A DNA stretch of 64,000 nucleotides from Candidatus Obscuribacteraceae bacterium (GCA_044226015.1 JBGAHS010000002.1:1171435-1235434), one strand, 5' to 3'; positions 10,507-52,026 are shown, counted from the stretch's first letter. The notes: generated by a model from the sequence alone, not told the origin. Numbers and translations are program-made.

Positions 10507-13500
10507 ATGTGTACAGCAATCATCGGCTTCATTATGCTTATGAGCCTGCTGGTGAGACGCCTCATCAGCGGACCTTCTAGCATGAAGCCAAAAAAACAAG
10601 CAAAGTGCCCCTTCCGCTTTCTTGCGCGGAAAGAGACCGAACCCGTCAAGCAGTCTGCGGACGGGCTTGGCTGGGAAGAGAACTTTCTCTTCGGCAGCCA
10701 CCAACACGAAGTGGCCTTCATCGACCAGGCGGCCCAGGACATCCACCGCGTCCAGCAGAACAACCGCAAGTCCGGCAAAGCTGCCTGCATCTTCCGAGCC
10801 TTCCACGCCAAGCCACTTGCGGCGATGAAGAATGCGGAACTGCACGTTGCTGAAGACATCCCCGCGGAGCTACGCGTGGGCATCCTACAGCCAGGCAAGA
10901 AGTACAGCAGCACGCTGCGCTTCTCGAACGCCGCCGGCACAATGAAATCAGACCTCGGCAAAGATCTGCGAGGCATCGCGCTGCGTGTCCACACCGAAGA
11001 GGGTGAACACGACCTACTCGCCACCAACGGGCGAGCTTCGCATGCGCGTAATGCGTGGCAATTCATCGCATTCGCACTTGCGATGTCGGGGTCAAAGTTG
11101 CTCATGCCGTTCCGGCTCATCTGGAGTGTTGGTCTTTTCGAAGCTGTCCGTATGATTCGCACGGCAAGCCGCCAGGCGTCGCGCAAGATCAACAGTGCAG
11201 CCACAGAGACCTACTTCAGCCGTGCCGCGTACGCAGTGGGCGAGCGCGCCGTGAAGTTCCAACTGACGCCTTGTGCGACTGAGGAACTGGGCATCGAGCG
11301 AACGCCAGAATACCTGCATGCCGATCTGGTTGAGCGGCTGAAGCGCGGACCTGTGGTCTTCAACCTGCAGGTTCAATACTTCAAAAACGAGACGGAAACG
11401 CCTGTCGAAGACGGCTCCGTCGAGTGGAACACTCCGCTCATCACCATCGCGCAAGTCGTGATTCCGCAACAAGACCTGTATTCTCAGGAAGCCGTTGCGG
11501 TGCAAGTCGAGGTCGACAACCTCGAGTTCAACCCCTGGAATGTAACGACGGGATTCCGTCCACTGGGCAGCCAGAACCGTGCGCGGCTCCTCGTCTACAA
11601 GGCGAGCGCAGCGTTGCGGAAAGGCGGCTCAGATTCCGGTCTTTCACAGAAAGGACAAAATTCCATGAGTCATGACGATCAGCAACGACGCTGTCCGTTC
11701 GGATTCGGCGGCAAGAATCAGCCTGACGGCACACAGCCTGACGGCAGCGAAGCGAAGATCTGGCGCCCTCGTTCGCGCCGGGTCGGCTTCAGGTTGGTCA
11801 GCTATGTGCTGCTCAACGCTTTCTACTGGGTTATGGAGACGATCAACCGCGGTCTCTCCCGTGACCCGAACCGCAAGGTGTCCTGGGACAAGTGGCCCAC
11901 GCCGCTCGGACTGATGTACCTTCTCGCAAAGATCTGGTACGTGCGCTCCAACGCCCTCACGGACCCCTACGACTATGCCACCAACGACGTGAAGGACATG
12001 GGTCCGGAACCCGAGGCGGCGAAACACGGCTACCTGCCCGACGGCAGCTGGGCGCTCGATAACGATGACCCTCAGATGGGAACACCCGGCACGCGTTTCG
12101 GCTCCAATATTCCGCCGAAGAAGGTGCGCCCTGACGTGGAGGAGATGACTCCAAGCGCTCGGGAAGCGGGCAAGCTGCGCTGGCGTCGGCTCGACGAGAA
12201 CGGCAAGGAAATCACCATTCCTGCGCTGATTCTCAGCGACCTCGCTGGCGGCTGGATTCAGTTCCAGTTCCACAACTTCGGCGGAAACACACTGCGTGAC
12301 CCCGTCACACAGTGCCCGCATCTGATGAAGCGCGACCCCAAGGACAACTGGCCGGGCAACGTTGCTCGCATCGACCGAACCACTGCGGACCCGACGCGCG
12401 TGACGGATAACGGTCGCCCCACGCCGATCAACGAGAAGACGGTAGCGTGGGTGCAGGGTCAGATCTACGGCAACAACGGCGACGAGCAGAACGCGCTGCG
12501 CTCCTTCGAGGGCGGCAAATTCGCGCTCGAAGCCGACCTGCGCCTACCGGAAGATCCGAACAAGCCGGGCATCGACCACACCGGTTTCAACAACAACTAC
12601 AACCCGCTGCTGAGCTTCTTGCACTGGCTCTTCGTGCAAGAGCACAACGCCATCGCCGACCATTACGCCTACTTCTACCCGGAGTGGGATGATGAAAAGC
12701 TTTTCCAGATGGCGCGCAAGGTCAACGTTGCGCAAATCGCCCGCATCCACACCATCCAGTGGACGGAAGACCTGCTGCAACATCCGACCCTGCAACTCGG
12801 CATGCACACTGACTGGTACGGCTTCCTCGGTCAGCGCACCAAGATGTACCTGATGCGCCTGGCGCATCGGTCGCCCTTCGTTGCTCGGCTCATCAAGCCG
12901 TTGCAAGGACAGGACGCCATCTGGGGCATGCCCGGCTCGAAGTGGGAACACCACGACGGTCCGTTCCAGGTGCCGAAGCACTTCCGGATGGTCTATCGCC
13001 TCCATGAGCTCATCCTCAGCGAGCGAGAAATCGTCCAGCCCGGCACAGACAAGCTGCTCGAGCGCGTGGATCTGATCAACTTCGTCCACAGCAACACGCG
13101 TCCGCTCGTCGCCAAATACGGCTACGAAACGCTCGCCTACAGCTTCGTGCGCAAGTCGTGTGGCGCTCTCACGCTGCACAACTTCCCGCGCGCGCTGACG
13201 CAGTTCGAAAACCAGCAGGACGGCGAGTTGACCGACCTGGCGGAACGGGACCTCCTTCGTGAGCGCACCGACGGCACCGGCACTTATAACGAGTTCCGGC
13301 AGTCTGTGGGTGAACCGCCCGTTACGTCCTTCCTCGAGCTGACCGGCGGCGACGCCGAGCTTGCTCGTGAGCTGGAAATCAAATACGAAGGCGACGTGGA
13401 CAAGGTGGACGCGGGCATCGGCATTCTCGCCGAACCCAAGCCTGCCGGCTTCGCGCTCGGCTTCTGCCAATTCTACCAATTCGTCCTGAATGCCCCTCGT

Positions 13501-14655
13501 CGAGTGAAGAGCAATCGACACCTGACGGAAGGCTTCACCTACGCCGAATACGCGGAAGGCATGGACTGGGTGGAACACGGTGGTGGCATGCTCGGTGCCA
13601 TGGCTCGGCACTTGCCGGGTCTCCGTTCACAGATGGAGGGCGTCACTCGCGCGTTCTCGCCCTGGAAGGAAACGGAAACCTTCCCGCATCGTCAATTGCA
13701 GGAAACGCACAAGGACACGGCCAACGTGTTCAAGGCGGACCTGCGCACCTTTGTTCTGGCAGTCGTTACGGCTGTCCTGGCGACCATGTCCGGCGCGATA
13801 CCCGCTTGGGTAGCGACGGGTGCGGTAGCGTGTATCACGCTCATCCCACTGGCTCTGACTGTGCGCCGTATGCTCGCCATGCGGTTCATGCAGATTTGCT
13901 GGAAGAAGTGCTACACAGACAAGCGTGGGTTCATGTTCGGAACATTGACTCGCGCCGAGAACTCCATCAACAGTGCGGCGCACTTCGGTGCTCTGCACGC
14001 GCTCGCGGTGATGGTCGGTTCGCTCGGATTGGCTGCGTTCTTTGGCTCCAGCTTCCCGCTGCTGTCTGCGCTGCTGGTTCTTGTGTCCATCAGCTCGCTC
14101 GGGGTGCGCAAGTGGTCGAAGTCTTTTGCTGCGAACGCACAGGTGCTGCGAATTGCCCTGCGTAATCGCATGCGAGACGGTCAACCGCAAATCGACCCCT
14201 GCGACATTGCAGGCAGCTCCGCCTTCGAAAAGCGGTTCTGCTTCAATCGTGAGCTGCCAGCTCGCGTTCGGGCTTCGGCGAGCAAAGACAACCATGTTTA
14301 CAGCTGCTACGGCGACGTAGACATGGAAGAATTTGAGCGCCTCTTCCGGACTTACGCACCGGGTCGCGACCACCTGACTGCCTACGACTTCAATCGCATG
14401 GCAGAACAGGAGTCGCTCTATGCCGGCAGCAACTTCATGAGCCGCTTCGTAGCTCGCTTGTCGATGCTGCGTCGTTCTCACGAAGTGCTGCACCTGTTCG
14501 GCGACACCATCGTCGAAGAGGACAAGAAGCTGGTTCCGGCAATCAGCAAGGGCATGCTGCTGAGCTTCTACCAGGGCACTGCCCAAGCTCAGCTGAAGCG
14601 GGAGCACGAAGAAGGGGACACTGACCCCAGCCCGCAGCCCCGTCAGTCCAGGTAA
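10507..14655 (+). CDS. Fusion: catalase-related heme domain + alpha-dioxygenase-like heme peroxidase + TM helices + caleosin-like domain
   Basis: RAFHAK, LRFSN, FNPWN, RPLGSQNRAR.LVY (catalase-related); WIQFQFHN, IHTIQWT, VYRLH, YNEFR, RRVKSNRHLT (alpha-DOX-like); YGDVDMEEFERLFRTYA, ISKGMLLSFYQG (caleosin-like). Confidence 0.85.
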   Translation: MCTAIIGFIMLMSLLVRRLISGPSSMKPKKQAKCPFRFLARKETEPVKQSADGLGWEENFLFGSHQHEVAFIDQAAQDIHRVQQNNRKSGKAACIFRAFHAKPLAAMKNAELHVAEDIPAELRVGILQPGKKYSSTLRFSNAAGTMKSDLGKDLRGIALRVHTEEGEHDLLATNGRASHARNAWQFIAFALAMSGSKLLMPFRLIWSVGLFEAVRMIRTASRQASRKINSAATETYFSRAAYAVGERAVKFQLTPCATEELGIERTPEYLHADLVERLKRGPVVFNLQVQYFKNETETPVEDGSVEWNTPLITIAQVVIPQQDLYSQEAVAVQVEVDNLEFNPWNVTTGFRPLGSQNRARLLVYKASAALRKGGSDSGLSQKGQNSMSHDDQQRRCPFGFGGKNQPDGTQPDGSEAKIWRPRSRRVGFRLVSYVLLNAFYWVMETINRGLSRDPNRKVSWDKWPTPLGLMYLLAKIWYVRSNALTDPYDYATNDVKDMGPEPEAAKHGYLPDGSWALDNDDPQMGTPGTRFGSNIPPKKVRPDVEEMTPSAREAGKLRWRRLDENGKEITIPALILSDLAGGWIQFQFHNFGGNTLRDPVTQCPHLMKRDPKDNWPGNVARIDRTTADPTRVTDNGRPTPINEKTVAWVQGQIYGNNGDEQNALRSFEGGKFALEADLRLPEDPNKPGIDHTGFNNNYNPLLSFLHWLFVQEHNAIADHYAYFYPEWDDEKLFQMARKVNVAQIARIHTIQWTEDLLQHPTLQLGMHTDWYGFLGQRTKMYLMRLAHRSPFVARLIKPLQGQDAIWGMPGSKWEHHDGPFQVPKHFRMVYRLHELILSEREIVQPGTDKLLERVDLINFVHSNTRPLVAKYGYETLAYSFVRKSCGALTLHNFPRALTQFENQQDGELTDLAERDLLRERTDGTGTYNEFRQSVGEPPVTSFLELTGGDAELARELEIKYEGDVDKVDAGIGILAEPKPAGFALGFCQFYQFVLNAPRRVKSNRHLTEGFTYAEYAEGMDWVEHGGGMLGAMARHLPGLRSQMEGVTRAFSPWKETETFPHRQLQETHKDTANVFKADLRTFVLAVVTAVLATMSGAIPAWVATGAVACITLIPLALTVRRMLAMRFMQICWKKCYTDKRGFMFGTLTRAENSINSAAHFGALHALAVMVGSLGLAAFFGSSFPLLSALLVLVSISSLGVRKWSKSFAANAQVLRIALRNRMRDGQPQIDPCDIAGSSAFEKRFCFNRELPARVRASASKDNHVYSCYGDVDMEEFERLFRTYAPGRDHLTAYDFNRMAEQESLYAGSNFMSRFVARLSMLRRSHEVLHLFGDTIVEEDKKLVPAISKGMLLSFYQGTAQAQLKREHEEGDTDPSPQPRQSR

Positions 14656-23390: not shown

Positions 23391-24503
23391 TTACAGAAGT
23401 CCGTATTCTCTGAACACCTGCGAAGCTACGTCAGCAAGATGTTGTGGCTTCTTCTTGCAGGGCACAGGGTGGCGGTCGCGCCAGAATCCAATCTTGCCCA
23501 TAAGTTCACGAGCAGTCATCAGGCGCTCGCCATGCAACAAGCCGGCGAAGGCAAGTCGGTTAAGACAAGCCTCGAAGCTCACCATGATGCCGTACCATTT
23601 CTCATCCGGCGTAAGCTTGAACTTAAGTGTGTGCACGTGGTCGATCTCTGATCGTACTTCCATGACGCCGGTGGTCTCATCACCCCAGTCAAAACGAGGG
23701 CTAATGAGCCAGAGTCGCCGCGCCCAACGATACAGCCGCCTCATCATCGGCTTCAGGCTTGGCTCGCTGACGCGACAAGCCAGAACATGGTCAGGACGCG
23801 CTCCGAAGCGCCGTATGTTGATACCCACCGGGCAAAACCCGTCCTCCGTTAGCGCGCCATCGAAGAGGTGCAGCCCCTTGTAGCGAAGGGCTGAGATGAC
23901 ACCAGGAATGGTGGCACTAGCGCGCACGGCAAGTCCGAGGGACGCAGGAGTGTCCGAGAGCACGGTCTCCTTGCCAGAGCGCTCATCGATATGAAACACA
24001 CCATCTTTGTTGAAGACCACCGGAGAACCGTTCTTGCTCGTAGCGAGAGTAGAAAAGTTAGCCGGCCATTGACCATCCAGCCCCAACTCGCTGGCGTATT
24101 TTTCAATCACGTTGCCGAGTCCAGCACTGCTGTATAGTCCGGTTAGCCGAGACTCGGTCCAATCAGCGTGAGAAGGCCGAACAGCGGGGGCACCAAAGCA
24201 AGCGAACACAGGACTTAGCAAACCGCCATTAAAGGACATCATCCTATCGAAGTCGTGGTCCAGGGCGACGCGCAATAGCTGTGCGGATTTCATACCGCAA
24301 GCCAGAAGCGCGGTTACGACAGCTCCGCCACTTACACCGAAGAGCCTGCGCCACTTGTTGATACCCGCGAGTTCGCAGGCAGCAGCGGTACCGACACCCG
24401 CCAGCACGGCGGCAGATCCTCCGCTGCTAATTGCCAGCTCAAGGTCGTTGAGATCAAGCTCGGACTGACCTCGCCGACATTGAAACATACAGGATTTTTT
24501 CAT
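23391..24503 (-). CDS. Patatin-like phospholipase (paralog of 4954-6063)
   Basis: SSGG, GVSGG, FDGA; shared CPVG, WG.ET.GV, DEKW, GFWRD segments. Confidence 0.85.
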   Translation of the reverse strand: MKKSCMFQCRRGQSELDLNDLELAISSGGSAAVLAGVGTAAACELAGINKWRRLFGVSGGAVVTALLACGMKSAQLLRVALDHDFDRMMSFNGGLLSPVFACFGAPAVRPSHADWTESRLTGLYSSAGLGNVIEKYASELGLDGQWPANFSTLATSKNGSPVVFNKDGVFHIDERSGKETVLSDTPASLGLAVRASATIPGVISALRYKGLHLFDGALTEDGFCPVGINIRRFGARPDHVLACRVSEPSLKPMMRRLYRWARRLWLISPRFDWGDETTGVMEVRSEIDHVHTLKFKLTPDEKWYGIMVSFEACLNRLAFAGLLHGERLMTARELMGKIGFWRDRHPVPCKKKPQHLADVASQVFREYGLL

Positions 24504-32486: not shown

Positions 32487-32866
32487 AGCGCCCGGCCCCT
32501 GTAGTTTAAGCGTTTGCGGACCTCGACTTAATATGAGCCTGCGGTAATTTGTTAAGACACAGTCCTAGCGAGAGCCTTCCGCCAGCTATGTCAACTGCGA
32601 TGTACGCTTAAGCAGAACCTGAATGGCACTATCCGCGGTGTAGCAGAATTGAAACACCGCCTGGACTGCGTTTGCAGCTCAGGCGCTGGTTTGACTTTCT
32701 AGCTCTGCAGCAACTAAGGTCGAATAACTACTCTACTTTCATCAACCTCGGAAAAGATCTCTCAAGCTAACCCGCTGCTGCATTTGCGCAAATAAAAAAT
32801 CCCGCAATGGATTGCCAACGCAGCCGGGCGAACTGTCTTTTCAAGCCAATCCGAAAGGAGTCGCTT

Positions 32867-33796
32867 ATGGATAAGTCATCTGTTCGCCCGCCGGCCCAAA
32901 AATACGAATTCGTTCTTGGCGCTGGCGGTGTCGAAGGTCCCGCTCACATCGGGGTTCTTCGTTGCCTTGAAGAAAGGCAAGTTCCTCTCGGTAAGATAAC
33001 GGGTGCATCAGTTGGCGCGCTCATCGCGACGTTCATCGCCAACGGATACAACTCGAAACAGCTGCAGGAAATCTTCCTCAGCGAGAGCTTCCGTTATCCC
33101 AGCTGGGACCTCTGGTCGAAATGCATCCGCATGCCCGACCCGAGCAATCTCTTCTTCCCGTGGACCTTTGACCAGTCGACCTGGATGAACTACTTCATCA
33201 AGAACGCTTGGCCCTGGGTCGTGGACTTCAAGCCCTGGCTGACTCACGTAGTCAACGAGTATGGGCTGAAGCCGCAAGACAACCTGCGTCTCGTCGCCGC
33301 TGACGCTCTCACGCGCAAGCCGGTCGTCTTCCAGGGTTGCGACTATGACCTCGTCGACGGGCTCACTGCCTCTACTGCAGCGATATCCGGTCTCGGCATG
33401 CGTCCCCTCTGGATTCCGCCCAATGGAAATCACAGGGATGGACACGATGATTGTGAATCTGTCGGCGGGCATCTGCTCATCGATGGATTTTACTTCCACC
33501 CGATTCCGGCGACGCTCTGTGAGACGAAGCCCGCGATCGTGTCGAAGATCGGTTTTGCAACTCAACTGCCGAACGAGCGCTTGTCCCCCTGGGACTTCGC
33601 GATGCATCTTCGTGAGATGATGCTGGCGGTGCAGTTCGACGCGATGTTTCCGGATCCGCCCGGGCACATCATCATCGAGTCCGGAATGCGCAATGTGGCT
33701 TCGACGAATTTCGGCGTGTCGTTGCGCACGCTGGAAACCTTGATCGATCACGCGTACAAAGCAGCAAATGAAAAGCTGGCGCGTGAACTGCCCTAA
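32867..33796 (+). CDS. Patatin-like phospholipase
   Basis: LGAGG..G.AHIGV, GASVG, LIDG; AAGGAG RBS. Confidence 0.85.
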   Translation: MDKSSVRPPAQKYEFVLGAGGVEGPAHIGVLRCLEERQVPLGKITGASVGALIATFIANGYNSKQLQEIFLSESFRYPSWDLWSKCIRMPDPSNLFFPWTFDQSTWMNYFIKNAWPWVVDFKPWLTHVVNEYGLKPQDNLRLVAADALTRKPVVFQGCDYDLVDGLTASTAAISGLGMRPLWIPPNGNHRDGHDDCESVGGHLLIDGFYFHPIPATLCETKPAIVSKIGFATQLPNERLSPWDFAMHLREMMLAVQFDAMFPDPPGHIIIESGMRNVASTNFGVSLRTLETLIDHAYKAANEKLARELP

Positions 33797-36884: not shown

Positions 36885-38378
36885 TTGGACGATAATCAAA
36901 AAATTCAAAGCACTCAGACATTCGCCGAAAGGCTTGCCCTGAAGCTTGACCACAAGAATAGCGTCCCGCTATATCGGCAACTCAGTGAACGACTGCGCGA
37001 GATGATTCTCAGCCTGAAACTTATGCCAGGAGAACTCTTACCTTCGACTCGCGAACTCGCCATAGCTCTCAATGTCTCGAGAAAAACTGTTTTTCGCTGT
37101 TATGAGGACCTGCAGAGTCAGGGCTTCATCAAAACCGAATCTGGCTTAGGAACTTACGTAAACAACTCAAACTTTGCCAACACCAAGAGCACCGGCGAAA
37201 ACGTCATCCAGCACAGGCTGACCGCATATGCCCAAAGTTTGCTGAACTTGCCGGACGAACCAAGCCATCAAGGTGACCATCCCGAACTGCATTTCGGCGC
37301 TCCACCAGTGTCCGAGCTGCCACTGAGCGCATGGCGCCAAATGCTTCTAAAACAACTCAGAAAAACTGATTTAGACCAGTTCTATTATGATACGGAGGCA
37401 TTCGGTTATCTGCCCCTTCGTCAGGCACTTGCTTCTTATCTCATGCGTTCTCGCGCTCTGCATTGCGATGCTGAAAACCTTATCGTTTTTTCGCATGCTT
37501 TGAGCCCACTGCGTTTGCTCGCCAAAATCATGGTCGATGCAGGAGATTCGGTGGCAATGGAAAACCCCGGCTTCCCGTTTGCAAGACAAGTTTTTAGCTC
37601 AATCGGTGCAAAAATAATTCCAGTTGGTGTTGATGCTCAAGGATTGCGTGTACAAGAGTTAGCGGCTCTAAAAGAGCCTGTGAAGCTGGTTTATGTTACA
37701 CCATCCCATCAGGATCCCTGTGGTGTAATGATGAGTCTTGAGCGAAGAAAAGAACTGCTTGCTTGGGCAAAATCGAGCAACTGTTTGATTCTCGAAGACG
37801 ACTATGACAGCGAGTTTCGCTATACAGGCTCAACACTGCCCGCTCTAATGGCTCTTGATGAGAATGAATCGGTGATTTACATTGGCGATATGTGGAAAAC
37901 ACTGTTTCCGCTAGTAAATGTCGGTTACCTCGTTTTACCATCTGGGCTTCGTTCTGTTTTCAAAAAGGCGCAATCTATTAGTTGGACCAAAGCAAGCACC
38001 AGTCTTCCTTTTTTTGATCAGCTGGCACTTACTGATTTCATGAATGATGGTCTTCTCGAAAGACATTTGCGAAAAACCAAATCAACATACGCTAGCCGTT
38101 ACAGAAACCTCATAGTAGGACTGAGTAAGCATTTCAACAATCGAATTGACTATGCAAAAGAAAGCAGCAGCATGCAGCTGTTGATAAAGTTCAAACAACC
38201 TATAAGTGATTCAGAGGTAAAAGCAACTTCGGAAGCTGCCGGCTTATCCGTAGTCTCAACAAGAGCATATTATCAAGGCAATTTTGTTCAAAACGAGTAC
38301 TTACTTGCTTTCGTGATGCTTGAAGAAACAGAGATGAGCCGCCGCCTCAAACTCTGGTCGACTTTGCTTTTTGAATAG
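36885..38378 (+). CDS. MocR/GabR family regulator (GntR HTH + PLP aminotransferase-like)
   Basis: LYRQL, LPSTRELA..L.VSR.TV, YVTPSHQ, EDDYDSEFRY. Confidence 0.92.
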   Translation: MDDNQKIQSTQTFAERLALKLDHKNSVPLYRQLSERLREMILSLKLMPGELLPSTRELAIALNVSRKTVFRCYEDLQSQGFIKTESGLGTYVNNSNFANTKSTGENVIQHRLTAYAQSLLNLPDEPSHQGDHPELHFGAPPVSELPLSAWRQMLLKQLRKTDLDQFYYDTEAFGYLPLRQALASYLMRSRALHCDAENLIVFSHALSPLRLLAKIMVDAGDSVAMENPGFPFARQVFSSIGAKIIPVGVDAQGLRVQELAALKEPVKLVYVTPSHQDPCGVMMSLERRKELLAWAKSSNCLILEDDYDSEFRYTGSTLPALMALDENESVIYIGDMWKTLFPLVNVGYLVLPSGLRSVFKKAQSISWTKASTSLPFFDQLALTDFMNDGLLERHLRKTKSTYASRYRNLIVGLSKHFNNRIDYAKESSSMQLLIKFKQPISDSEVKATSEAAGLSVVSTRAYYQGNFVQNEYLLAFVMLEETEMSRRLKLWSTLLFE

Positions 38379-41088: not shown

Positions 41089-43029
41089 ATGAATAGCTAT
41101 TTTTTGACTCGTCTTAGCAGCGAGCAGAAGAAAAAATTGGATGAGAAATCCATTGCCTACTTTGAATTCGCCCTCGGCGATGAGAATGGTTTGCTCCTGC
41201 AAGCTGACGCCATGGAATCAGCCCTGGAGGTTCTAGAGCTGATTGCGGAAGAACAAGTTGCCACAAACTACGAAGGTATTTTTCGTACCAGGGTAAGAGC
41301 TACTCACTCCGAACTCGCCTCAGCTGCGAACGTGGGCTCCTGGAAAGGCAAGAACAAGCATGGCATGTTGCAGATAGTTCAACAGCTGTTCTTGCCATAC
41401 TTGCAAAAACAGATCGTTTTGGAAAATCGCCACGGAGTTGTTGCACCCATCAACGATGGCAACTTCCACATTCACATCTACTCTGCACCTGTCAAAACAT
41501 CAGGTTGCAACACTCCCAAAACGATCTGGGGAATTCCCACTCAGTCCTCTAGCAATTCCTGGAGTCCAAGCGGCAAAGGGACTTGCTTCTACGACGGCAA
41601 ATACGCCGTTGCAGAACTTCTCGAGCAGAACAATCTGTATGTTTTCCATAATCTAGCGGAGAGTGGAAATGTTAATGAGGAGATGCTGTTCTCAGTTCTC
41701 CTCGATCGTGTTTTGCAACACCTGCAGCCTGAGCAATCAGAAGCCCAGGCAAAGCACCTGTTTATCGATGCTTGTTCGTACTTTCGCTGCGCTGGACTCA
41801 CCGAAGCCAGCGGTTCTGCCGACGAGCTTCAGGTATCAATCCGAGAGCTTAAGAAAGAGTTGAAGAAATGCTCACGCGCAGCCGCTGCTGAAGAACTCAA
41901 ACTTCTTCGCAATGAGAAAATTTCAACTGATGAAATCTTTGCAGCGGAATACGAGAATCTTCTCAAAGTTCCAAAAGTAACAGATGTTCAAGTTGAAAAC
42001 GGCGTCATCATCGTTTCAACAGAAGTACTTTACGCAAAGGATCCGCGATCGGACAAATATCACGAGATTGGCGCATTCAAGATTCACCTTTCACCCGAAA
42101 ATGAGAGCCCCCGCTGGTTCAATCAGACGCGGCTGGTAAAATCAATTGGTACGAAACCAATGCAAGCGGTGCACGTCTTTAACAGCGGCATGGCCTGCCT
42201 CGGAAACACAGAAGCCTTGTTCAAAGACTTGTTTAAGCAGCGAGAATGGGCGCTCGCAGCGCAGGTAGCCATAGAATTTGCCGAGAGCGTAAATCAGCGT
42301 CAGCGCGACAATGCTGGTTTACATGTAACCGAGTGGCCGGAAGCTGCTGATGCTGATGTTGCGCGCCGCGATAAACGCATCAGTCGACCCAAAAAGTTAA
42401 CTGATGCACAACTCGCGTACAAGCCGCAGTACATCTCTGCTTGTGCCGATCGTGTGAACTCGCTGATTAAAGATTCTCTCTGTCAGATCGAATCGATACG
42501 CAGAACAGTTGAAGAACTTCAAGCTGAGCTCGTTTCCCTTTTGCGGAACCGCGCCTCAAAATTGAAACAGGCGACTCGTAAGAAACTCTGCAATCGAGAT
42601 GAAATTGCAGCGGAATTCGACGCGCTGTTAAGAGTCCCGAAAGTAACTGGCGTTCGTGTACAAGATCGCAGTGTCACAATTTCGACTGAGACACTGTTTT
42701 GCACCTGTCCAAATTCCAAACTCAAACGAGAAATTGGCAGTTTCCTGATCAAAATCAATCTGGATGGAAGCGGAGATTGCGTGCGCTGGATAAATACCAG
42801 CCGCCAGGTCAAAGCTCTCTTTCAGAAGCAAAACGCCGTCCGAGTGCTAAGTAGCGGGCGTGCGCTGTTCAGCGATATTCGCGAATCCTTCCCGGATCTG
42901 ATTGCTGACTTCAAGTTGGCAATTCTTGCACAGCTGGCAATTGAATTCATCGAACAAATTGATGCCGATGAGCCAGCTTCCTCTTTCCTTGATCAATGGC
43001 CAGAGTCCCAAACCTCAGGAGCAATCTAA
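41089..43029 (+). CDS. Prokaryotic E2-like protein with two tandem E2-fold repeats
   Basis: HVFNSGMACLG (E2 His...Cys signature) in repeat 1; internal duplication; GGAGG RBS; stop overlaps the JAB start (TAATG). Confidence 0.7.
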   Translation: MNSYFLTRLSSEQKKKLDEKSIAYFEFALGDENGLLLQADAMESALEVLELIAEEQVATNYEGIFRTRVRATHSELASAANVGSWKGKNKHGMLQIVQQLFLPYLQKQIVLENRHGVVAPINDGNFHIHIYSAPVKTSGCNTPKTIWGIPTQSSSNSWSPSGKGTCFYDGKYAVAELLEQNNLYVFHNLAESGNVNEEMLFSVLLDRVLQHLQPEQSEAQAKHLFIDACSYFRCAGLTEASGSADELQVSIRELKKELKKCSRAAAAEELKLLRNEKISTDEIFAAEYENLLKVPKVTDVQVENGVIIVSTEVLYAKDPRSDKYHEIGAFKIHLSPENESPRWFNQTRLVKSIGTKPMQAVHVFNSGMACLGNTEALFKDLFKQREWALAAQVAIEFAESVNQRQRDNAGLHVTEWPEAADADVARRDKRISRPKKLTDAQLAYKPQYISACADRVNSLIKDSLCQIESIRRTVEELQAELVSLLRNRASKLKQATRKKLCNRDEIAAEFDALLRVPKVTGVRVQDRSVTISTETLFCTCPNSKLKREIGSFLIKINLDGSGDCVRWINTSRQVKALFQKQNAVRVLSSGRALFSDIRESFPDLIADFKLAILAQLAIEFIEQIDADEPASSFLDQWPESQTSGAI

Positions 43030-44240
43030 TGTATTTTTCAAGAAGAGAACAGCCTCTTACACCCCACAGTTTCAATACGCAGGTCAGGTTTCTGCCCAAA
43101 GCAGAACCGAAGAAACCGCGAATTGTTCTTTCCCGACTAGCATTTGCACAGATGACTGTGTATGTGAAAATCGCACAGGAAGAAGTCGGTTGGATGGGCA
43201 CAGTGAAGCGCCTTCCAGATGGTGACTTTCTGATTGAAAAGTGTTTCTTGTTCAAGCAGAAGGTCCATGCAACTGAAACTGAAATCAGCACAGAAGGATT
43301 CTCTGAACTCTCAATGGAGCTGCTCAACACAGCGACTGATGACGAAGACGAATCGAACTGGGAGGTGAACAAGCTCCGTTTCTGGGGTCATTCACACGTC
43401 AGAATGGCTACAGGACCCTCAGACACAGACCAGCGTGCGATGCTCACCTCATTCGGCAAGGGACACTCTAACAACACCGGGCAGCTTCGTTTTTGCTTCG
43501 AAGAATGCGGTTATCCTTGGGTGATTCGCGGTATCTTCAACAAATTCGGTGAAGCGAACTTTGATGTTTATCTTTATTCTGAAGGCTTGCACTTTGCGGA
43601 CGTTGAGTGGACGGTAGAAGACCCTAGCGCAGAAGAGATTGCTTTACAGAAGCAGGTCGATACGCTCTGTTTAGCCATCCAAACAGGACTGTTTCCAAAT
43701 AAAGAAACAACAAAACCTGCCAAGGTTGCCACTCTCGGAGAGCCTGAGTCCGACTCAAGCGTCTGTCCTCAAAGGAAGAGTCCTAATACCTTCGGTTTTG
43801 GCATCGATCGTGAACTGAGGTATTGGCCTCACATTACTCCGGAATTGCGTACCGCCATTCAACAAGAATTCGACAAGAAGGTTGTAAGTGTGCGTCGTCA
43901 TTCAGAAGAGCCGCAGCAAACGAAATCCGGATGGCGGTCCATGTTTCAACAACGTACTAGCAGCGCACAGGTTCAAACCAACTCTGCAGATTCCTCAACT
44001 TCGACCGAGCAATATCCAAGCGAGTTCGGTGATGAAGTCTACGGGCGAGGCTCAGCTCCCGACATGGGCTCAGCCTCTGCAAGACCAGCTCTTCAAATCG
44101 GCAAAGAACATCGAGCCGAAACACCGCGAACAAATGAAGTGCGGTGGATTGCACCAAAACCAAAAGAAACGCCCAAAACGACCAGCATTTCTGAAACCTT
44201 GCGCACGGCATGGAGCGAGCTCCTCGACTTCCTCTCCTAG
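43029..44240 (+). CDS. JAB/MPN+ (JAMM) metalloprotease with low-complexity tail
   Basis: EEVGWMG catalytic Glu and WGHSHVRMATGPSDTD (HxH-x7-S-x2-D). Confidence 0.88.
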   Translation: MYFSRREQPLTPHSFNTQVRFLPKAEPKKPRIVLSRLAFAQMTVYVKIAQEEVGWMGTVKRLPDGDFLIEKCFLFKQKVHATETEISTEGFSELSMELLNTATDDEDESNWEVNKLRFWGHSHVRMATGPSDTDQRAMLTSFGKGHSNNTGQLRFCFEECGYPWVIRGIFNKFGEANFDVYLYSEGLHFADVEWTVEDPSAEEIALQKQVDTLCLAIQTGLFPNKETTKPAKVATLGEPESDSSVCPQRKSPNTFGFGIDRELRYWPHITPELRTAIQQEFDKKVVSVRRHSEEPQQTKSGWRSMFQQRTSSAQVQTNSADSSTSTEQYPSEFGDEVYGRGSAPDMGSASARPALQIGKEHRAETPRTNEVRWIAPKPKETPKTTSISETLRTAWSELLDFLS

Positions 44241-44315
44241 AACGGTCGATAGAGCTTAGTGTTCTCAGATTCTATTTCAACAAAAACCACACACACTTTT
44301 TTGAAAGTAGTACAC

Positions 44316-45002
44316 ATGATTGATACGCAACGACATCTGTCAGTTTTTGATCCAGATGCTTTTGGCAGCAAGATTGTCGACGTAATCGGTGTCGGTGCTA
44401 CCGGCTCGAAGGTTGTACTCAGCCTGGCTAAGCTGGGCATCCAAAACATTCGTGCATGGGACGCCGACGTTCTCGAAGCGCACAACATCTGCAACCAGGC
44501 ATACGCAAAAGAAGATATCGGCCTGAAAAAGGTCGAAGCTCTGAAGGAAATGGTCTGGCGCCAAGCCGGCTTGAACCTGGATGCAAGAGCTGAATATGTT
44601 GACGGCACACAAGAACTCGGTCCAATCGTATTCTTGCTAACCGACACTATGTCCTCCCGCAAGAAGATCTGGGAAGGCAGCTTGCGCTTCAAATCGCGTG
44701 TCAAGCTAGTGGTGGAAACCCGCCTTGGCGCTGAGTCGTCGTACATTTACAGTATCAACCCTTGCTCACTGCCTGAAGTACAGGGTTGGGAAAGCACACT
44801 CTGCGATGACGATAAAGTTGAGCGCTCCGCATGTGGAAGCAAGATTTCCGTCGGTCCCAGCGCTGGAATTCTCGCAGAGAAGGCTGTATGGCAATTGATT
44901 CGCTGGTTCGCCATCGAGAACGGTCAGGATGACGTTCTTGACCATGAGATCATCGAGTCCTTCCGTCCACCTGCAATCTACACCAGACAGTTCGAAGATT
45001 GA
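44316..45002 (+). CDS. ThiF/MoeB-family E1-like adenylyltransferase
   Basis: VIGVGATGS, LAKLGI, WDADVLEAHNICNQ, IGLKKVEAL, SACGSKISVGP. Confidence 0.9.
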   Translation: MIDTQRHLSVFDPDAFGSKIVDVIGVGATGSKVVLSLAKLGIQNIRAWDADVLEAHNICNQAYAKEDIGLKKVEALKEMVWRQAGLNLDARAEYVDGTQELGPIVFLLTDTMSSRKKIWEGSLRFKSRVKLVVETRLGAESSYIYSINPCSLPEVQGWESTLCDDDKVERSACGSKISVGPSAGILAEKAVWQLIRWFAIENGQDDVLDHEIIESFRPPAIYTRQFED

Positions 45003-45202
45003 GAGAATTTGACTCCAAACAGATCTTCATCAGCAGAACCGCCACCGCTATCGGTGGCTTAGCCTTCAACCGATAGCGCCTGGCGACGTTATCGACTGAA
45101 GACACAAAACTGGATGCGACAGCGCTCAGCTCTGCATCCAAGACAACTTAACTAAAAACTCTATCCAAGACATACTCATCCTTTACGAAAGAGCAGTTAA
45201 AC

Positions 45203-45457
45203 ATGTCCACTGAAAACAGTAATAAAAACGGTGTCGATAGCGCTCCTGAAATGCTCAGCGTGCGAGTCGGCAAAATGCCTGGCAACATCACAATCAAGAA
45301 GGTCTCCCCAGGCTCAACAGCGGCTGACGTGTTGCGCATGGCAGACCTTGACCCCAGCGACCACGAAGTGCGTGTCAATGGAGTTCCAGCCAACCTGACT
45401 CAAAAATTGCGGCACAACGATGCGGTGTTGTTGTTCAAGCCACTGGCCGGCAACTAG
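45203..45457 (+). CDS. Ubiquitin-like beta-grasp protein, copy 1
   Basis: VRV...GSTAADVL...EVRVNG...L.HND.VLL; C-terminus LAGN; follows E1. Confidence 0.85.
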   Translation: MSTENSNKNGVDSAPEMLSVRVGKMPGNITIKKVSPGSTAADVLRMADLDPSDHEVRVNGVPANLTQKLRHNDAVLLFKPLAGN

Positions 45458-45482
45458 CAAAACGACACGCATCAATTCTCAA

Positions 45483-45508
45483 GCAGGAGTGCCTTCTGAC
45501 ACTCCTGC
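45483..45508 (+). terminator. Stem-loop after Ubl-1
   Basis: GCAGGAGTG-CCTTCTGA-CACTCCTGC; no U-tract. Confidence 0.4.
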
Positions 45509-45554
45509 AATCGATTCTACACATCCAAAACTATTGAAGGAAAAGAGATAAAGC

Positions 45555-46478
45555 ATGGGAACTTTCATTAATGTGTTCGTTCTTGGACCACTCCTGGGAC
45601 TGCTTACTATTCAGTTGCTGGCTCGGGTACACCAAATCAAGAATCGTGTTTTGCCGAAGCCCAAGAATGAGCTGCGAGTGCTAGTAAATGGCGTCGCTGT
45701 GATTTTCGAACTGATTGGCATGTGCGCAATCAGCATGTTTTTGGGCGCCGGAATTCTCGCTCTGTCAGTGCCAATGCTGTTGATCGCTCAGCTTATCATT
45801 GCCGGTGAAGATGCTGGCGAAGATAACGTCAAAGCAAAAATGGTTATTGAAACCTACCAGCGATGGTCTACCAGGTTCAAGCTCGTCGCCCAGATTACGT
45901 TCAATCATGGACGGGTGCTAGTACAATCGTACACAAGTAGCCGTTCTCCTCGATCCTCCGAGAACGCAACAGTCGGCACGACAGAAAAAACTCCTACCCG
46001 TGCTGAGCCGATTAGCTGCCCACGAAAACCATTGAGTGAGCAAGAATTGCTACAGCAACTGGTGGCAAAGGTTGCACAGTTACAACAATGGGCATCGCGC
46101 CCAGAATCTGACCGTGTAGCCGTTGCTGAACTGACAAAGCAGGCGCGCGACCTGGAGGAAGCACTCAATGCTGAAGTGCAAAAGCTTGAAACCGGCACCA
46201 CCGACTGGAAAGACATCTGCTCTCACATCGAAGGTCTAAACCGCCATCAGCTACCGGCAGAGCTATCCAGCGCACTCAATGAACTGGTTCAAGAGCGTGC
46301 CGCCAAGCTTGACACCAATCGGGATGATGTTGCTCTGCTTTCGAGCGAGTTGCGCGCCACAGCAGACAACCTGAAGCAAAAGCTCACCACGCGGTCTCTC
46401 TCTCCTGAAGAAGTGATCAGCTCTGCTAATGCAGCACTGGATTCGGCTGAGCAAGTCTGCTCAAAATCCCAAAGCTAA
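45555..46478 (+). CDS. Membrane protein (about 3 TM) with C-terminal coiled-coil domain
   Basis: Hydrophobic N-terminus; C-terminal ~150 aa align with the downstream coiled-coil paralogs. Confidence 0.75.
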   Translation: MGTFINVFVLGPLLGLLTIQLLARVHQIKNRVLPKPKNELRVLVNGVAVIFELIGMCAISMFLGAGILALSVPMLLIAQLIIAGEDAGEDNVKAKMVIETYQRWSTRFKLVAQITFNHGRVLVQSYTSSRSPRSSENATVGTTEKTPTRAEPISCPRKPLSEQELLQQLVAKVAQLQQWASRPESDRVAVAELTKQARDLEEALNAEVQKLETGTTDWKDICSHIEGLNRHQLPAELSSALNELVQERAAKLDTNRDDVALLSSELRATADNLKQKLTTRSLSPEEVISSANAALDSAEQVCSKSQS

Positions 46479-46514
46479 GTAGCACACAAGCACGATGACA
46501 TAGATTTCGTCTAA

Positions 46515-46572
46515 CAGCAGGTCGCAATGTCTGCTGGGCTCCCAAAAGGCAGGCCCAAACGGGCCTGTCTTT
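46515..46572 (+). promoter_or_regulatory. Double-hairpin leader element, copy 1
   Basis: CAGCAGG..TCTGCTG and AAAGGCAGGCCC-AAAC-GGGCCTGTCTTT; compensatory changes versus copy 2. Confidence 0.6.
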
Positions 46573-46630
46573 CTGGAAATTTGTACACACTCAAAATGTT
46601 CACAAGCACACCTAACTGAAAGAACCGAAA

Positions 46631-47164
46631 ATGGGACTCTACACAGCCAAGACTAACTCAATGGAAGCGCTGAACGACGTACTGGCACAAGTACAAAAGC
46701 TCCAAGCAAATGTCGGTCTTACCGAGACAGAGCGAGCTGAACGTCAGCGCCTGCAAGCTGAAGTACAGTCAAAACAACAAGCCCTGCAAACAGCGACGCA
46801 GCGCCTGAAGTCTACGACTGAGATTTGCGAGCAAACCGCGGCACGTATCCAGACGATCGCTGATATCAGCGCTTCCCTTGGCACCGAAATGGCTGCATTG
46901 CCAACTGACCTGCAGACTCAATGCGCCGCCGTGAACGACCATTTGACTGGCTTGTCCTCTAAGCTGTCCGAACTGGCAAACTCATGCCAAAACGACAAAG
47001 CGACGGCAAGAGAAGTGGTCGAGCAAAAGAAAGGCGAACTCCAGTCTGCCAAGGAAGCTCTCCTCGCTGATATCAACAAGCAACGCCCTTCAGCTGAAGA
47101 CGCCATTCTTGATGCAGAAGCAGCAATCGCCGAAGCGGCACAAGTCTCATCGAACCAGGACTAA
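46631..47164 (+). CDS. Coiled-coil protein, copy 1
   Basis: A/Q/E/L-rich heptads; near-identical to 47711-48241. Confidence 0.85.
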   Translation: MGLYTAKTNSMEALNDVLAQVQKLQANVGLTETERAERQRLQAEVQSKQQALQTATQRLKSTTEICEQTAARIQTIADISASLGTEMAALPTDLQTQCAAVNDHLTGLSSKLSELANSCQNDKATAREVVEQKKGELQSAKEALLADINKQRPSAEDAILDAEAAIAEAAQVSSNQD

Positions 47165-47251
47165 AGTTCCCGTCCGAGTTCAAATTCGCTCAGCCCATGT
47201 TTATTGCCTGTAACCATTTCACAAAATCCTCTTGTAACAGGACAGCTATAG

Positions 47252-47503
47252 ATGACCATCAACAAAAACAACAGCGGCGTTGAGCCCACTCCAGAGATGC
47301 TCAGTGTGCGAGTCGGCAAAATGCCTGGCAATATCACAATCAAGAAAGTCTCAACCGGTTCAACAGCTTCTGACGTGTTGCGCATGGCAGACCTTGATCC
47401 GACCGATCACGAAGTGCGTGTCAACGGAGTTCCTGCCAATTTGACTCAAGAGCTGCGTCATAACGATGCGGTGTTGTTATTCAAGCCTCTGGCGGGCAAC
47501 TAG
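47252..47503 (+). CDS. Ubiquitin-like beta-grasp protein, copy 2
   Basis: Near-identical to 45203-45457; same LAGN end. Confidence 0.85.
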   Translation: MTINKNNSGVEPTPEMLSVRVGKMPGNITIKKVSTGSTASDVLRMADLDPTDHEVRVNGVPANLTQELRHNDAVLLFKPLAGN

Positions 47504-47521
47504 CAACAGGCTCTGCAGTCA

Positions 47522-47554
47522 GCTGAGCAAGTTTGCTCAAAATCCCAAAGCTAA
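47522..47554 (+). pseudogene. Remnant 3' end of a deleted copy of the 45555-46478 gene
   Basis: GCTGAGCAAGTTTGCTCAAAATCCCAAAGCTAA matches 46446-46478 with one mismatch. Confidence 0.7.
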
Positions 47555-47593
47555 GTTGTGCTTACAAAGCACAATGATATCGATTTGGTCTAA

Positions 47594-47651
47594 CAGCAGA
47601 TCGCAATGTCTGCTGGATTCCCAACAGACAGACCCAAACGGGTCTGTCTGT
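47594..47651 (+). promoter_or_regulatory. Double-hairpin leader element, copy 2
   Basis: CAGCAGA..TCTGCTG and ACAGACAGACCC-AAAC-GGGTCTGTCTGT. Confidence 0.6.
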
Positions 47652-47710
47652 TTGCAAATTTGTACACAGTGTCAAATGTTCACAAGCACACCTAACTGAA
47701 AGAACCGAAA

Positions 47711-48241
47711 ATGGGACTCTACACCAAGGCTGACTCAATGGAAGCGCTGAACGACGTACTGGCTCAAGTAAAGAAGCTGCAAGCAGAAACCAGCCTCACC
47801 GAGACAGAGCGTGCTGAACGTCAGCGCCTGCAAGCTGAAGTACAGTCAAAACAACAAGCCCTGCAAACAGCGACGCAGCGCCTGAAGTCTACGACTGAGA
47901 TTTGCGAGCAGACCGCGGCACGTATCCAAACTATCGCTGACATTGCAGCGTCACTCAGCACCGAAATGGCTGCATTGCCAACGGACCTGCAGACTCAATG
48001 CACCGCCGTGAACGACCATTTGACCGGCTTATCCACTAAGTTGTCCGAACTGGCAAACTCATGTCAAAACGACAAATCGGCGGCCAGAGAAGCGGTAGAG
48101 CAAAAGAAAGGCGAGCTGCAGTCTGCAAAGGAAGCTCTCCTCGCTGATATCAACAAGCAACGCCCTTCAGCTGAAGACGCCATTCTTGATGCAGACGCAG
48201 CAATCGCCGAAGCAGCACGAGTCTCAGCGAACCAGAACTAA
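47711..48241 (+). CDS. Coiled-coil protein, copy 2
   Basis: Paralog of 46631-47164. Confidence 0.85.
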   Translation: MGLYTKADSMEALNDVLAQVKKLQAETSLTETERAERQRLQAEVQSKQQALQTATQRLKSTTEICEQTAARIQTIADIAASLSTEMAALPTDLQTQCTAVNDHLTGLSTKLSELANSCQNDKSAAREAVEQKKGELQSAKEALLADINKQRPSAEDAILDADAAIAEAARVSANQN

Positions 48242-48343
48242 AGTTCTCGCCTAGTTTACCCTGGCAAATAGCATCCAACTACATGAATGCTATTTGCCTC
48301 TCTACGAATTTCCACCAAATCCGTTAACAACGAAAGACATCAA

Positions 48344-49126
48344 ATGAGCCAATCATCCTATTTCCTGCCAGCCTTGACTGCCGCAGACGCACAAACCCTG
48401 GAAGCTGCTGGCTGCATCTGTGCATTGACCACAATCAACCATGAGACTGGATACATCATCAATCCTGGAGACCTGGAATTGGCAATCCAGCGCTTGAACG
48501 CCGTAGTCGATCAAATGAATTCGACAGGTCAGTTCGGCGTCATGCGCGTGACTCTCCTTCGCACAGACGTAGCGACGGCTCGCACGAAGCAGCGAGGCAC
48601 TTCTTCGAAAGATAGCTCTATGGAAGCGCTGTCCACTGTACTTGCCCAGGTGCAACGGCTTCAGGCGCAGGTCAATCTCACAGACACTGAACGTGATGAA
48701 CGTCTACGCTTACAAGCTGAAGTTCAGTCGAAACAGAAAGATCTGGAAACCGCAACTCAGCGCCTGAAGTCAACTGTTGCGATCTACAATCAAACCGCAG
48801 CGCGCATTCGTACAATCGCAGAAATTGCGGGTGCACTGGGCACAGAAATGGAAGCTTTGCCTGCTGAACTGCAGGGTCAATGCAGCTCTGTCAACGAGCA
48901 TCTAAACGGTCTGGCAGCCAAACTCACCGATCTGGCAAATTCCTGCCAAAACGACAAAGCCGCAGCGCTGCAAGCAGTCGAGGGAAAGAAATCCGAGCTT
49001 CAAGCCGCTAAGGATGCTCTGGTCAACGACATGAGCAAGAAACGAGTTTCGGCTGAAGAAGCCCTGCTCGATGCAGAAACCGCGCTCAACGACGCAGAGA
49101 GCGTCGCATTCAAGCAACAAAGTTGA
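48344..49126 (+). CDS. Coiled-coil paralog with an N-terminal domain shared with the E2-like protein
   Basis: SMEAL..VLAQVQ.LQ... domain; N-terminal SYFL... ~70 aa similar to the 41089 protein. Confidence 0.8.
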   Translation: MSQSSYFLPALTAADAQTLEAAGCICALTTINHETGYIINPGDLELAIQRLNAVVDQMNSTGQFGVMRVTLLRTDVATARTKQRGTSSKDSSMEALSTVLAQVQRLQAQVNLTDTERDERLRLQAEVQSKQKDLETATQRLKSTVAIYNQTAARIRTIAEIAGALGTEMEALPAELQGQCSSVNEHLNGLAAKLTDLANSCQNDKAAALQAVEGKKSELQAAKDALVNDMSKKRVSAEEALLDAETALNDAESVAFKQQS

Positions 49127-50172: not shown

Positions 50173-52026
50173 TTAGTTCCACGGTGCCTTGAAATCAGGA
50201 GCAGGCCCGAAGTCAGCGCCACCACCATTGGTGCCGTTCAAATCGGGTTGCCACAGACCTCCGGCCGAGGTGGCACGCTTGCTGACAAAACCGTCGACCC
50301 ATTCCGTGCAGGTTTTGTCATCGCGGTAACCGTTGTTCCAGGCAGTGCGCTGGGCAACCCGGTCGTTGCTGTTCCGCATTTGCCGCAGAAGATTGAACCA
50401 GCCAATGTTATTGACTGCCCCAAGCTCTTTGCGCAATGAACGGACAGCCTCAGAATAACCGACCTGCTCGCCAGCACGCCAGGCGCGAACAGCCGCATCG
50501 TAGCGAGCCGAAGCCTCATCGAGGTGGCTGCTAAAATTGCTGTCGCGTCGGCTTGCATCTGCACCGCTGTAGTTCCGTCCATTGATGGTGCAGCTAAAGG
50601 CGTTCCACGCGCTGCTCTGCTTGAGCTGGGTCTTCAGCTCGGACAACTCATCCCACTTCTTGTTGTCGTCGTTGACTGCCTGCTTCGCATCCTTCAACTT
50701 CTGGATGCCGTCTTCTGCGTCTCGCTTCACCTGACGCCAATCCTGCTTGGTCAAGCGAATCTGACGTTCGATGCGAGTAGAGATGTCGTTTATAACGTTG
50801 ACCTTCTGCTTCGTTGCATCAGTCAATTCGTTATGCAGACTTTGAGACAGGAAGCTCAACGGAGGGGTTCCGTTGCGATCCGCATCTTCAAAGTCACGAC
50901 GGAAGTTCTTCACGGCAACCAGCGCATCATCGTAATCACGACGAGACTGCACAGCCTCGTCGCGAACAGCGTTCAACGACTTCTCAATACTCTGACCACT
51001 GGACTTCAGGTCAGTCCAATTAGAGTGGTCTTGCTTGAGCGACTCAGCAAGGCTGTTGAGCTGATTCTTCAGCGACTCGAACTTCTGGTCAGTGCTCGTC
51101 GAAGTGAAGTTCGCATTGTCTTCCAACGAGCGCGCAACATCTCGCTGCAGACGCTGACAGTACGCAACTACCTCACGCGTTTCGCGGCGATCCTCAATGC
51201 GCTGATTAAGCGCATCCATCCGACGAGCTGCACTCACGAACTTGTGTTCGAAGTAAGCTGCCTTGACGGAAGATTCGTAGCTGCTATCGCTGCCCTCGGA
51301 CTTCTGCAAAATCGCCGTCAATTCACTCTCTACCCGCTTCTTAGAGCTGAAAGCGCGATCGATGCAAGCAGTGGCGGACGCAGCAGAAGACTTGGCGTTT
51401 TTCAGAGAAGCAGCAGCTGAACGCGGGTCACCAGCTTCCAACGCCCCATCGATACTGTCCAGTGAGCGGCGGGCAGCCGAGATGTGCGCGTCTGGGTTGT
51501 TGTCCTCCTCTTCAAGGCGCAGCTTCTCCGAGCGCGAAGAAGTACCAGGATAGTTGAGGTCGATCGTTTGCCGGCGCGCTTGCTCAACACGCTCTTCGGC
51601 ATTGCTGAGAGCGGAACGAGCGCCGCTGTCAGTCTTCACCTCGATAGCCAGATTCAGATCAGACAGCACTGATTGGAAGTGCCCCTCCGCTTCCGCGGAG
51701 ATTTTGTCGGCGGCCTGCGGGTCGCGCGAAAGTACGGTTTCCGCCGTCTTCAGCTCACGTTCAGCCGAGTCGAAGCGACTCTGGTAGGGCTGAAACTTGA
51801 GGCCGGTTCCTGAAAGGGTGCCTTGCTGTCGCAAGATTTGCGCCTGCAGCTGGTGGCAGGCAGCGATGTGCGCCTGGCTGCTGGTTTTCGCCGCCTCGAC
51901 ATTGTGCCGATGGATGGCGTAGCCGATGATGCTGCCGATGATCACAACGGCGGCGATGGCGATAGCGATGATGACGCCCTGATTCGCCTGCCCCCGTCGA
52001 TTCCGATTCGTGTTACTCATGTTCAT
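50173..52026 (-). CDS. Membrane-anchored long alpha-helical protein, paralog of 38840-41056
   Basis: N-terminal TM; shared KQDW.Q and W..L..M.NS....A...GY segments. Confidence 0.8.
   Translation of the reverse strand: MNMSNTNRNRRGQANQGVIIAIAIAAVVIIGSIIGYAIHRHNVEAAKTSSQAHIAACHQLQAQILRQQGTLSGTGLKFQPYQSRFDSAERELKTAETVLSRDPQAADKISAEAEGHFQSVLSDLNLAIEVKTDSGARSALSNAEERVEQARRQTIDLNYPGTSSRSEKLRLEEEDNNPDAHISAARRSLDSIDGALEAGDPRSAAASLKNAKSSAASATACIDRAFSSKKRVESELTAILQKSEGSDSSYESSVKAAYFEHKFVSAARRMDALNQRIEDRRETREVVAYCQRLQRDVARSLEDNANFTSTSTDQKFESLKNQLNSLAESLKQDHSNWTDLKSSGQSIEKSLNAVRDEAVQSRRDYDDALVAVKNFRRDFEDADRNGTPPLSFLSQSLHNELTDATKQKVNVINDISTRIERQIRLTKQDWRQVKRDAEDGIQKLKDAKQAVNDDNKKWDELSELKTQLKQSSAWNAFSCTINGRNYSGADASRRDSNFSSHLDEASARYDAAVRAWRAGEQVGYSEAVRSLRKELGAVNNIGWFNLLRQMRNSNDRVAQRTAWNNGYRDDKTCTEWVDGFVSKRATSAGGLWQPDLNGTNGGGADFGPAPDFKAPWN

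Follow-up and report, generated by a model that had tools for sequence, protein, structure and literature searches.

How E3-less bacterial ubiquitin-like systems place their E2 and choose their targets is an open question, and it is raised by an operon of a Candidatus Obscuribacteraceae bacterium (GCA_044226015.1, JBGAHS010000002.1:1171435–1235434; this whole stretch of 64,000 nucleotides is referred to as the window). The operon encodes ubiquitin-like proteins (Ubls), an E1, a JAB peptidase, an E2 and several coiled-coil (CC) proteins, and no E3 gene was recognised in library scans at the locus. The E2 and the last CC protein, named here the domain+CC protein, begin with the same domain, which gives a small deletable handle on this question.

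The sequence-only reading of the window had proposed an N-terminal domain of about 70 aa common to these two proteins, with a gapless alignment and a set of matching residues, and both points were borne out. The alignment of the E2 (ATG 41089) with the domain+CC protein (ATG 48344) contains exactly the listed residues, 14 identities in 64, and both ATGs are likely to be the start codons, with the SYFL motif beginning in frame at 41095 and 48356 respectively. The local score of the two N-termini is 63, a value that none of 5000 shuffles attained (mean 23, SD 4), and the full-length proteins score 67, reached by 2 of 1000 shuffles. Chance similarity draws on the weakness of pairwise BLASTP, which by itself reaches only E=0.012. 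A phmmer search with single sequences against the genome's six-frame ORFs (65,903) did not link the two proteins. The profile building and search that had been suggested as a check did link them reciprocally. A profile of six E2 sequences retrieved the domain+CC protein as the top non-self ORF of the 65,903 (E=0.0018), and a profile of two CC-protein sequences retrieved the E2 as the top non-self ORF in the genome (E=0.002). HHalign of nine domain+CC proteins against 29 E2s, a set formed apart from the window's own E2, gave 99.1% and E=6.5e-19 over 70 columns. This match between independent sets refutes chance similarity, which is now barely credible, and together with the shuffles and the reciprocal profile matches it establishes from sequence comparison that the two N-termini are homologous.

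The genes are arranged on the + strand in the order GntR/MocR, CC0, E2, JAB, E1, Ubl1, membrane CC, CC1, Ubl2, CC2 and domain+CC, with the following features:

36885–38378 (+), GntR/MocR-type regulator, upstream of the operon and likewise upstream in loci L021 and L059
38840–41056 (+), CC0, 738 aa, predicted to form long coiled coils and carrying one membrane segment at its N-terminus
41089–43029 (+), E2 protein, 646 aa: shared domain, mid domain, coiled coil, Cys-bearing E2 domain, coiled coil, Cys-less pseudo-E2 domain
41089–41310 (+), shared domain copy 1, opening the E2 protein, about 72 aa, predicted β-α-β-β-α-β-β, GGAGG before the ATG
41326–41727 (+), mid domain, about 130 aa, unnamed, 0–5 copies per E2 in relatives
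41938–42351 (+), E2 domain with the H-V-x6-C-L-G motif, His codon 42172 and Cys codon 42196
42610–43017 (+), pseudo-E2 domain, a homologue of the first E2 domain (internal repeat E=1e-24) that has neither the His nor the Cys
42996–44240 (+), JAB/JAMM peptidase with an intact E...HSH...S..D motif and without a Pfam match; the start may be 43029
44316–45002 (+), single-domain ThiF-type E1 with the conserved SACG cysteine (Pfam ThiF E=9.5e-12)
45203–45457 (+), Ubl1, ending Gly-Asn (ThiS E=0.008)
45555–46478 (+), membrane-anchored member of the short CC family, from hydropathy and alignment
46631–47164 (+), CC1, stand-alone CC-family protein
47252–47503 (+), Ubl2, 85% DNA identity to Ubl1
47711–48241 (+), CC2, recent tandem duplicate of CC1 (unit of about 1.08 kb, 91% over 300 nt)
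48344–49126 (+), domain+CC protein, 260 aa, a CC-family body headed by the shared domain
48344–48577 (+), shared domain copy 2 at the start of the domain+CC protein; relatives start at the same position

The shared domain has 72 aa and a predicted βαββαββ fold (AlphaFold pLDDT 91.8) without conserved catalytic residues. It is an unnamed, new domain family: no match was found in Pfam, NCBIfam or PDB, a Pfam search with 18 members gave nothing below E=0.03, and one with 82 full proteins gave nothing relevant. In fold comparison it has weak neighbours, namely ACT domains and ring-building motifs, both of which are known to oligomerise. These scores lie within the range of a common arrangement, and unlike ACT domains and RBM1 of PrgK/EscJ, the shared domain features an extra C-terminal β-hairpin and is predicted to be cytoplasmic. 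The domain is present in 147 of the best 150 profile matches (156 matches at E<=0.001 among 1.84e9 proteins). These carriers comprise 117 E2-like proteins, 6 CC proteins, 8 domain+mid pieces and 16 lone domains, the last 24 being mostly fragments. In nearly all matches the domain is N-terminal or directly behind a membrane anchor, and it is confined almost only to one ubiquitin-like operon family.

No library names the E2 protein, and Pfam and PDB sequence searches returned no match to it. It contains the HP-x-V...G-x-x-C-L active-site segment and the following helices of the E2/UBC fold. HHalign of the E2 profile against 16 UQ_con-matching cyanobacterial E2s (from 16 of 17 fetched loci; one could not be extracted) gave 90% and E=1.6e-6 over 51 columns across the active site, with a score of 43.5 against at most 17.3 in 60 column shuffles. 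These sequence results support the assignment of the protein as an E2 with one Cys-bearing and one Cys-less E2 domain. The mid domain, which lies between the shared domain and the coiled coil, is without a Pfam or PDB match and is a candidate substrate-binding module; substrate choice may lie there rather than in the shared domain.

The operon family is defined by a Ubl ending Gly-Asn, a single-domain E1, a JAB, and a coiled-coil E2 with a Cys-less pseudo-E2. Among relatives, the Gly-Asn end is found in 52 of 53 Ubl domains, the JAMM motif is intact in all 35 examined, and the E1 cysteine motif is present in 33 of 33. Close relatives are annotated as Obscuribacterales or Melainabacteria, and the family occurs in these groups, with single named proteins in Paceibacterota and Thermoanaerobaculia. 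No description of the family was found in the literature, of which coverage was partial, so that its absence from print is not proven; the family seems to represent a form of bacterial ubiquitin-like conjugation that is a variant of the known kinds and new in itself. In most relatives the Cys-bearing E2 and the pseudo-E2 are encoded by two genes. The 38 complete split pairs, a count that leaves out four pairs cut by contig ends and the repeat loci L034 and L061, carry the domain on both genes in 28 cases (three of them weak, at 16–24 bits), on the first only in 2, on the second only in 6 and on neither in 2; as these loci are kin, mostly fetched through a domain match, the tally is biased. The domain is present on the E2 and the last CC protein, as the sequence-only reading had it, and it is mainly a feature of E2 and pseudo-E2 proteins, which that reading had missed.

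Where the two E2s are fused, as in the window, none of seven proteins has a second copy before the pseudo-E2 at threshold, with a trace of 3.9 bits in L031. Such an absence is expected if fusion makes a linker dispensable. The domain is again found on two genes in the window and in four complete fused-type operons. The CC family is found in 5 of 104 family genomes. In each of the five, a fused E2 is accompanied by a membrane CC gene and a domain+CC gene, and in four of them the three share a contig. The CC body exhibits no relation to the E2 coiled coil (HHalign at most 2%), CC0 or PspA, and as it is not homologous to the E2 coiled coil, domain shuffling is indicated rather than a truncated E2. 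In genome G003 (L021:2486–3226, -) a Ubl and a CC-family body are joined in frame in one protein of 246 aa; these are separate genes in the window. We infer that this fusion connects the CC family with the Ubl pathway, its product being either a polyprotein cut by the JAB or a mimic of the conjugate, and the JAB would be expected to release the Ubl from it. The CC proteins are more likely a scaffold or local substrate than target-choosing adaptors.

Other loci extend the family. A ClpA/B/C-type AAA+ gene directly follows the E1 in 19 of 33 E1 loci (e.g. L028:275–2794 and L029:6479–9061) and in none of the five CC-bearing loci. Upstream of the complete operon, L039, L040, L043 and L062 encode a second E2/pseudo-E2 pair in the same orientation. 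CC0 with an E2 pair is found in L033, L041, L064 and L066 with no E1, JAB or Ubl nearby, and CC0 precedes the E2 in fused-type and orphan-pair loci. Two metagenome contigs of the same family (L056:6208–11503 and L057:1834–5045) encode E2-E2-JAB(-E1-Ubl ending near GN), and both of their E2s keep the Cys and neither has the shared domain. The neighbours of L056 include a nuclease and SNF2 and are phage-like in appearance, and Atlas connects the coiled-coil-E2 part with unnamed clusters in which phage proteins abound (score 0.91).

A precedent for such a shared domain is given by the effector-associated domains (EAD1–10), for which a homotypic coupling of components has been proposed (Kaur et al. 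2020, PMC7159879); here and below, comparisons refer to the accessible parts of the cited texts. EAD1 sits on a Ubl-E2 protein in FtsH ternary systems (PMC7159879). Like the EADs, the shared domain is small and non-enzymatic, stands at a protein terminus, and recurs on another gene of the operon besides the core component (PMC7159879). Unlike those described there, it has a mixed α/β fold, its second carrier is a pseudo-E2 or CC protein and not an enzymatic effector, and the system is without a MoxR, vWA or GTPase core and without a RING E3. The 18 members and the 82 full proteins gave no Pfam match to any EAD model.

The two-carrier pattern, and the shift of the second copy to a CC protein where the E2s are fused, favour self-association, in which the domain would act as a tag joining the E2 to other carriers of the same domain. 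This reading is tentative and stands at slightly less than even. The JAB would trim the last Asn of the Ubl to expose the Gly, the E1 would activate the Ubl, and the Cys-bearing E2 would then take it. An ancestral single E2 would have oligomerised through the domain and its coiled coil, and duplication would have given an active/inactive E2 pair with the domain on each. In the fused type the pseudo-E2 would be without its copy, a copy having been shuffled onto a short CC protein. Through the domain+CC protein the E2 would be connected with the membrane-anchored CC-family member, and conjugation would thus sit at the membrane without an E3. The docking or co-localisation role put forward in the sequence-only reading is supported in part, by a domain confined to the system, usually on two genes, and by a CC copy that retains every residue marking the class of the fused-E2 copies. 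Its suggestion of an E3-independent targeting route is plausible given the lack of a recognised E3 gene and is not specific to the domain, since Bil systems, as far as described, are also without E3s and the mid repeats are a rival substrate receptor.

Several observations weigh against self-association. Ten of the 38 split pairs are without two copies (8 with one copy), and the overlapping contigs L055 and L058 contain an operon with a single carrier gene. Copies of the same operon share 19 (window), 29, 30, 33 and 23% identity in the five genomes, and those of different operons 20–35%, so that the same-operon closeness of the EAD type is absent (19–33% within vs 20–35% across). The shared domain accordingly resembles the EADs in pattern and is not a member, given the lack of both a sequence match and this closeness. 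The CC copy also changes more quickly than either the E2 copy or the CC body attached to it. The low mutual identity, the lack of same-operon closeness and the single-carrier operons also suit a reading in which the copies do not bind each other and both contact one further component, be it CC0, the E1, the Ubl, the membrane CC protein or the membrane itself, which would co-localise their proteins. The membrane-anchored E2 class, in which the domain follows directly after a hydrophobic N-terminal segment, suits it as well. This reading is rather unlikely: besides the core enzymes and the Ubl, no candidate partner is present in every operon type, CC0 and CC being found only in some, and the orphan E2 pairs without a nearby E1 or Ubl retain both copies.

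The faster drift of the CC copy relative to its body would also suit a passenger, one that reached a CC gene by duplication of the 5' end of the E2 gene and does nothing there. The region is prone to duplication (the 1.08 kb tandem, the second Ubl), and CC bodies also occur bare, membrane-anchored or fused to a Ubl. Such a passenger is very unlikely, as the copy is intact in all five CC genomes and in four more divergent proteins (23–50% full-length identity to the window protein), with the core and hairpin residues kept and dN below dS in 3 of 4 pairs. Every one of the 11 CC-copy rows has F5, G34 and the long β2-β3 loop, the T/S-x-Y-x-G hairpin is kept in 10 of them, and all four features are present in 14 of 14 fused-E2 rows, counts that include near-duplicates. 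The CC copies are without the short loop found in most pseudo-E2 copies, and most of them fall among fused-E2 copies in a tree of low power. It is distinctly unlikely, if less so than the passenger, that the domain is a sensor or target-binding module (an ACT-like ligand sensor or a receptor for invader proteins), with the CC copy as a second receptor or as a decoy that regulates the E2 by competition.

If self-association is taken further, the family would be an undescribed ubiquitination system with a membrane-attached platform, on which the active/inactive coiled-coil E2 pair and coiled-coil scaffolds co-assemble, possibly as a ring, through an E3-like positioning domain. The mid repeats would pick substrates, and in most split-type operons the Clp ATPase would read the tag, a job done in eukaryotes by p97 or the proteasome. 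This wider picture is speculative and somewhat doubtful. The shared domain marks an operon family that unites an E2/pseudo-E2 pair, membrane anchoring and, in the 19 loci given above, an adjacent Clp ATPase. All three are paralleled in the ubiquitin biology of eukaryotes, and none of them appears in the available descriptions of Bil, Bub and CBASS.

From its E1 architecture, E2 motif and gene content, the operon is judged not to be Bil, Bub or PRTRC. Like Bil types I and II (PMC10557695; bioRxiv 2024.11.21.623953), it encodes a separate Ubl, E1, E2 and JAB, a Cys-based E2 and no E3, and the Ubl has one residue past the terminal Gly to be trimmed. As Bil is described there, the E1 is IAD-AAD-CYS, whereas the window E1 is one 228-aa ThiF domain, and the type II E2 has CEHH in place of the window motif APHV..G..CLG. 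Furthermore, the E2 of this family is multidomain with a coiled coil and is paired with a pseudo-E2, and the family has extra membrane and CC genes or a Clp ATPase. No PADLOC model fits the locus, with partial E1 matches only. With Bub/6E/DUF6527 (bioRxiv 2024.11.21.623953,.623966) it shares Ubls with 1–3 β-grasp repeats and a Cys-less E2-like domain, and the Ubl-CC fusion of G003 resembles the fused, JAB-released Ubl of Bub. The Bub E1 and E2 are reported to be without Cys and to use oxyesters (same sources), whereas the E1 and one E2 of this family keep theirs (E2 Cys at 42196), and no Ubl-E2, JAB-E1 or E2-E1 fusion of the Bub kind is found in this family. The Pfam scan of the window proteins gave no match to DUF6527. 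Class 6D/PRTRC (Iyer et al. 2006, PMC1779556) similarly has a stand-alone Ubl, E1, JAB and Cys-bearing E2, and differs, as outlined there, from the window E2, in which the His lies upstream of the Cys as in classical E2s. A further source for comparison with bacterial ubiquitin-like systems, likewise available in part, is PMC11354881. The window E2 has no Prok-E2_D match, and the PRTRC ThiF model scores 31 against the window E1 (cut-off 144.75).

In eukaryotes, an E2 paired with an inactive E2 is also found in Ubc13-Mms2, and Spc24-Spc25 is a coiled-coil-RWD heterodimer. The family resembles these in its active and inactive E2 folds and in a coiled coil leading into an E2-like domain, which is an analogy only, as no sequence link was found beyond non-significant coiled-coil matches.

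The tandem duplication behind CC2 spans 46434–48241 and is recent, about 1.08 kb, with one 51-nt stretch identical; a remnant of the 3' end of the membrane CC gene lies behind Ubl2 (47510–47556). CC0 has three paralogues in the genome (window 50173–52026, -; L107:5084–8236; L108:4678–7794), two of which match at E 3e-20 and 2e-16 and the third of which was found through the 50173 protein. The two paralogues of 1040–1050 aa are followed by 2–3 tandem coiled-coil genes of about 220–240 aa, which exhibit a faint PspA likeness only (HHalign 10%). Elsewhere in the window, 10507–14655 (+) encodes a 1382-aa protein in which a catalase-like domain is fused to an animal haem peroxidase domain, and two genes encode patatin-like phospholipases (23391–24503, -; 32807–33796, +).

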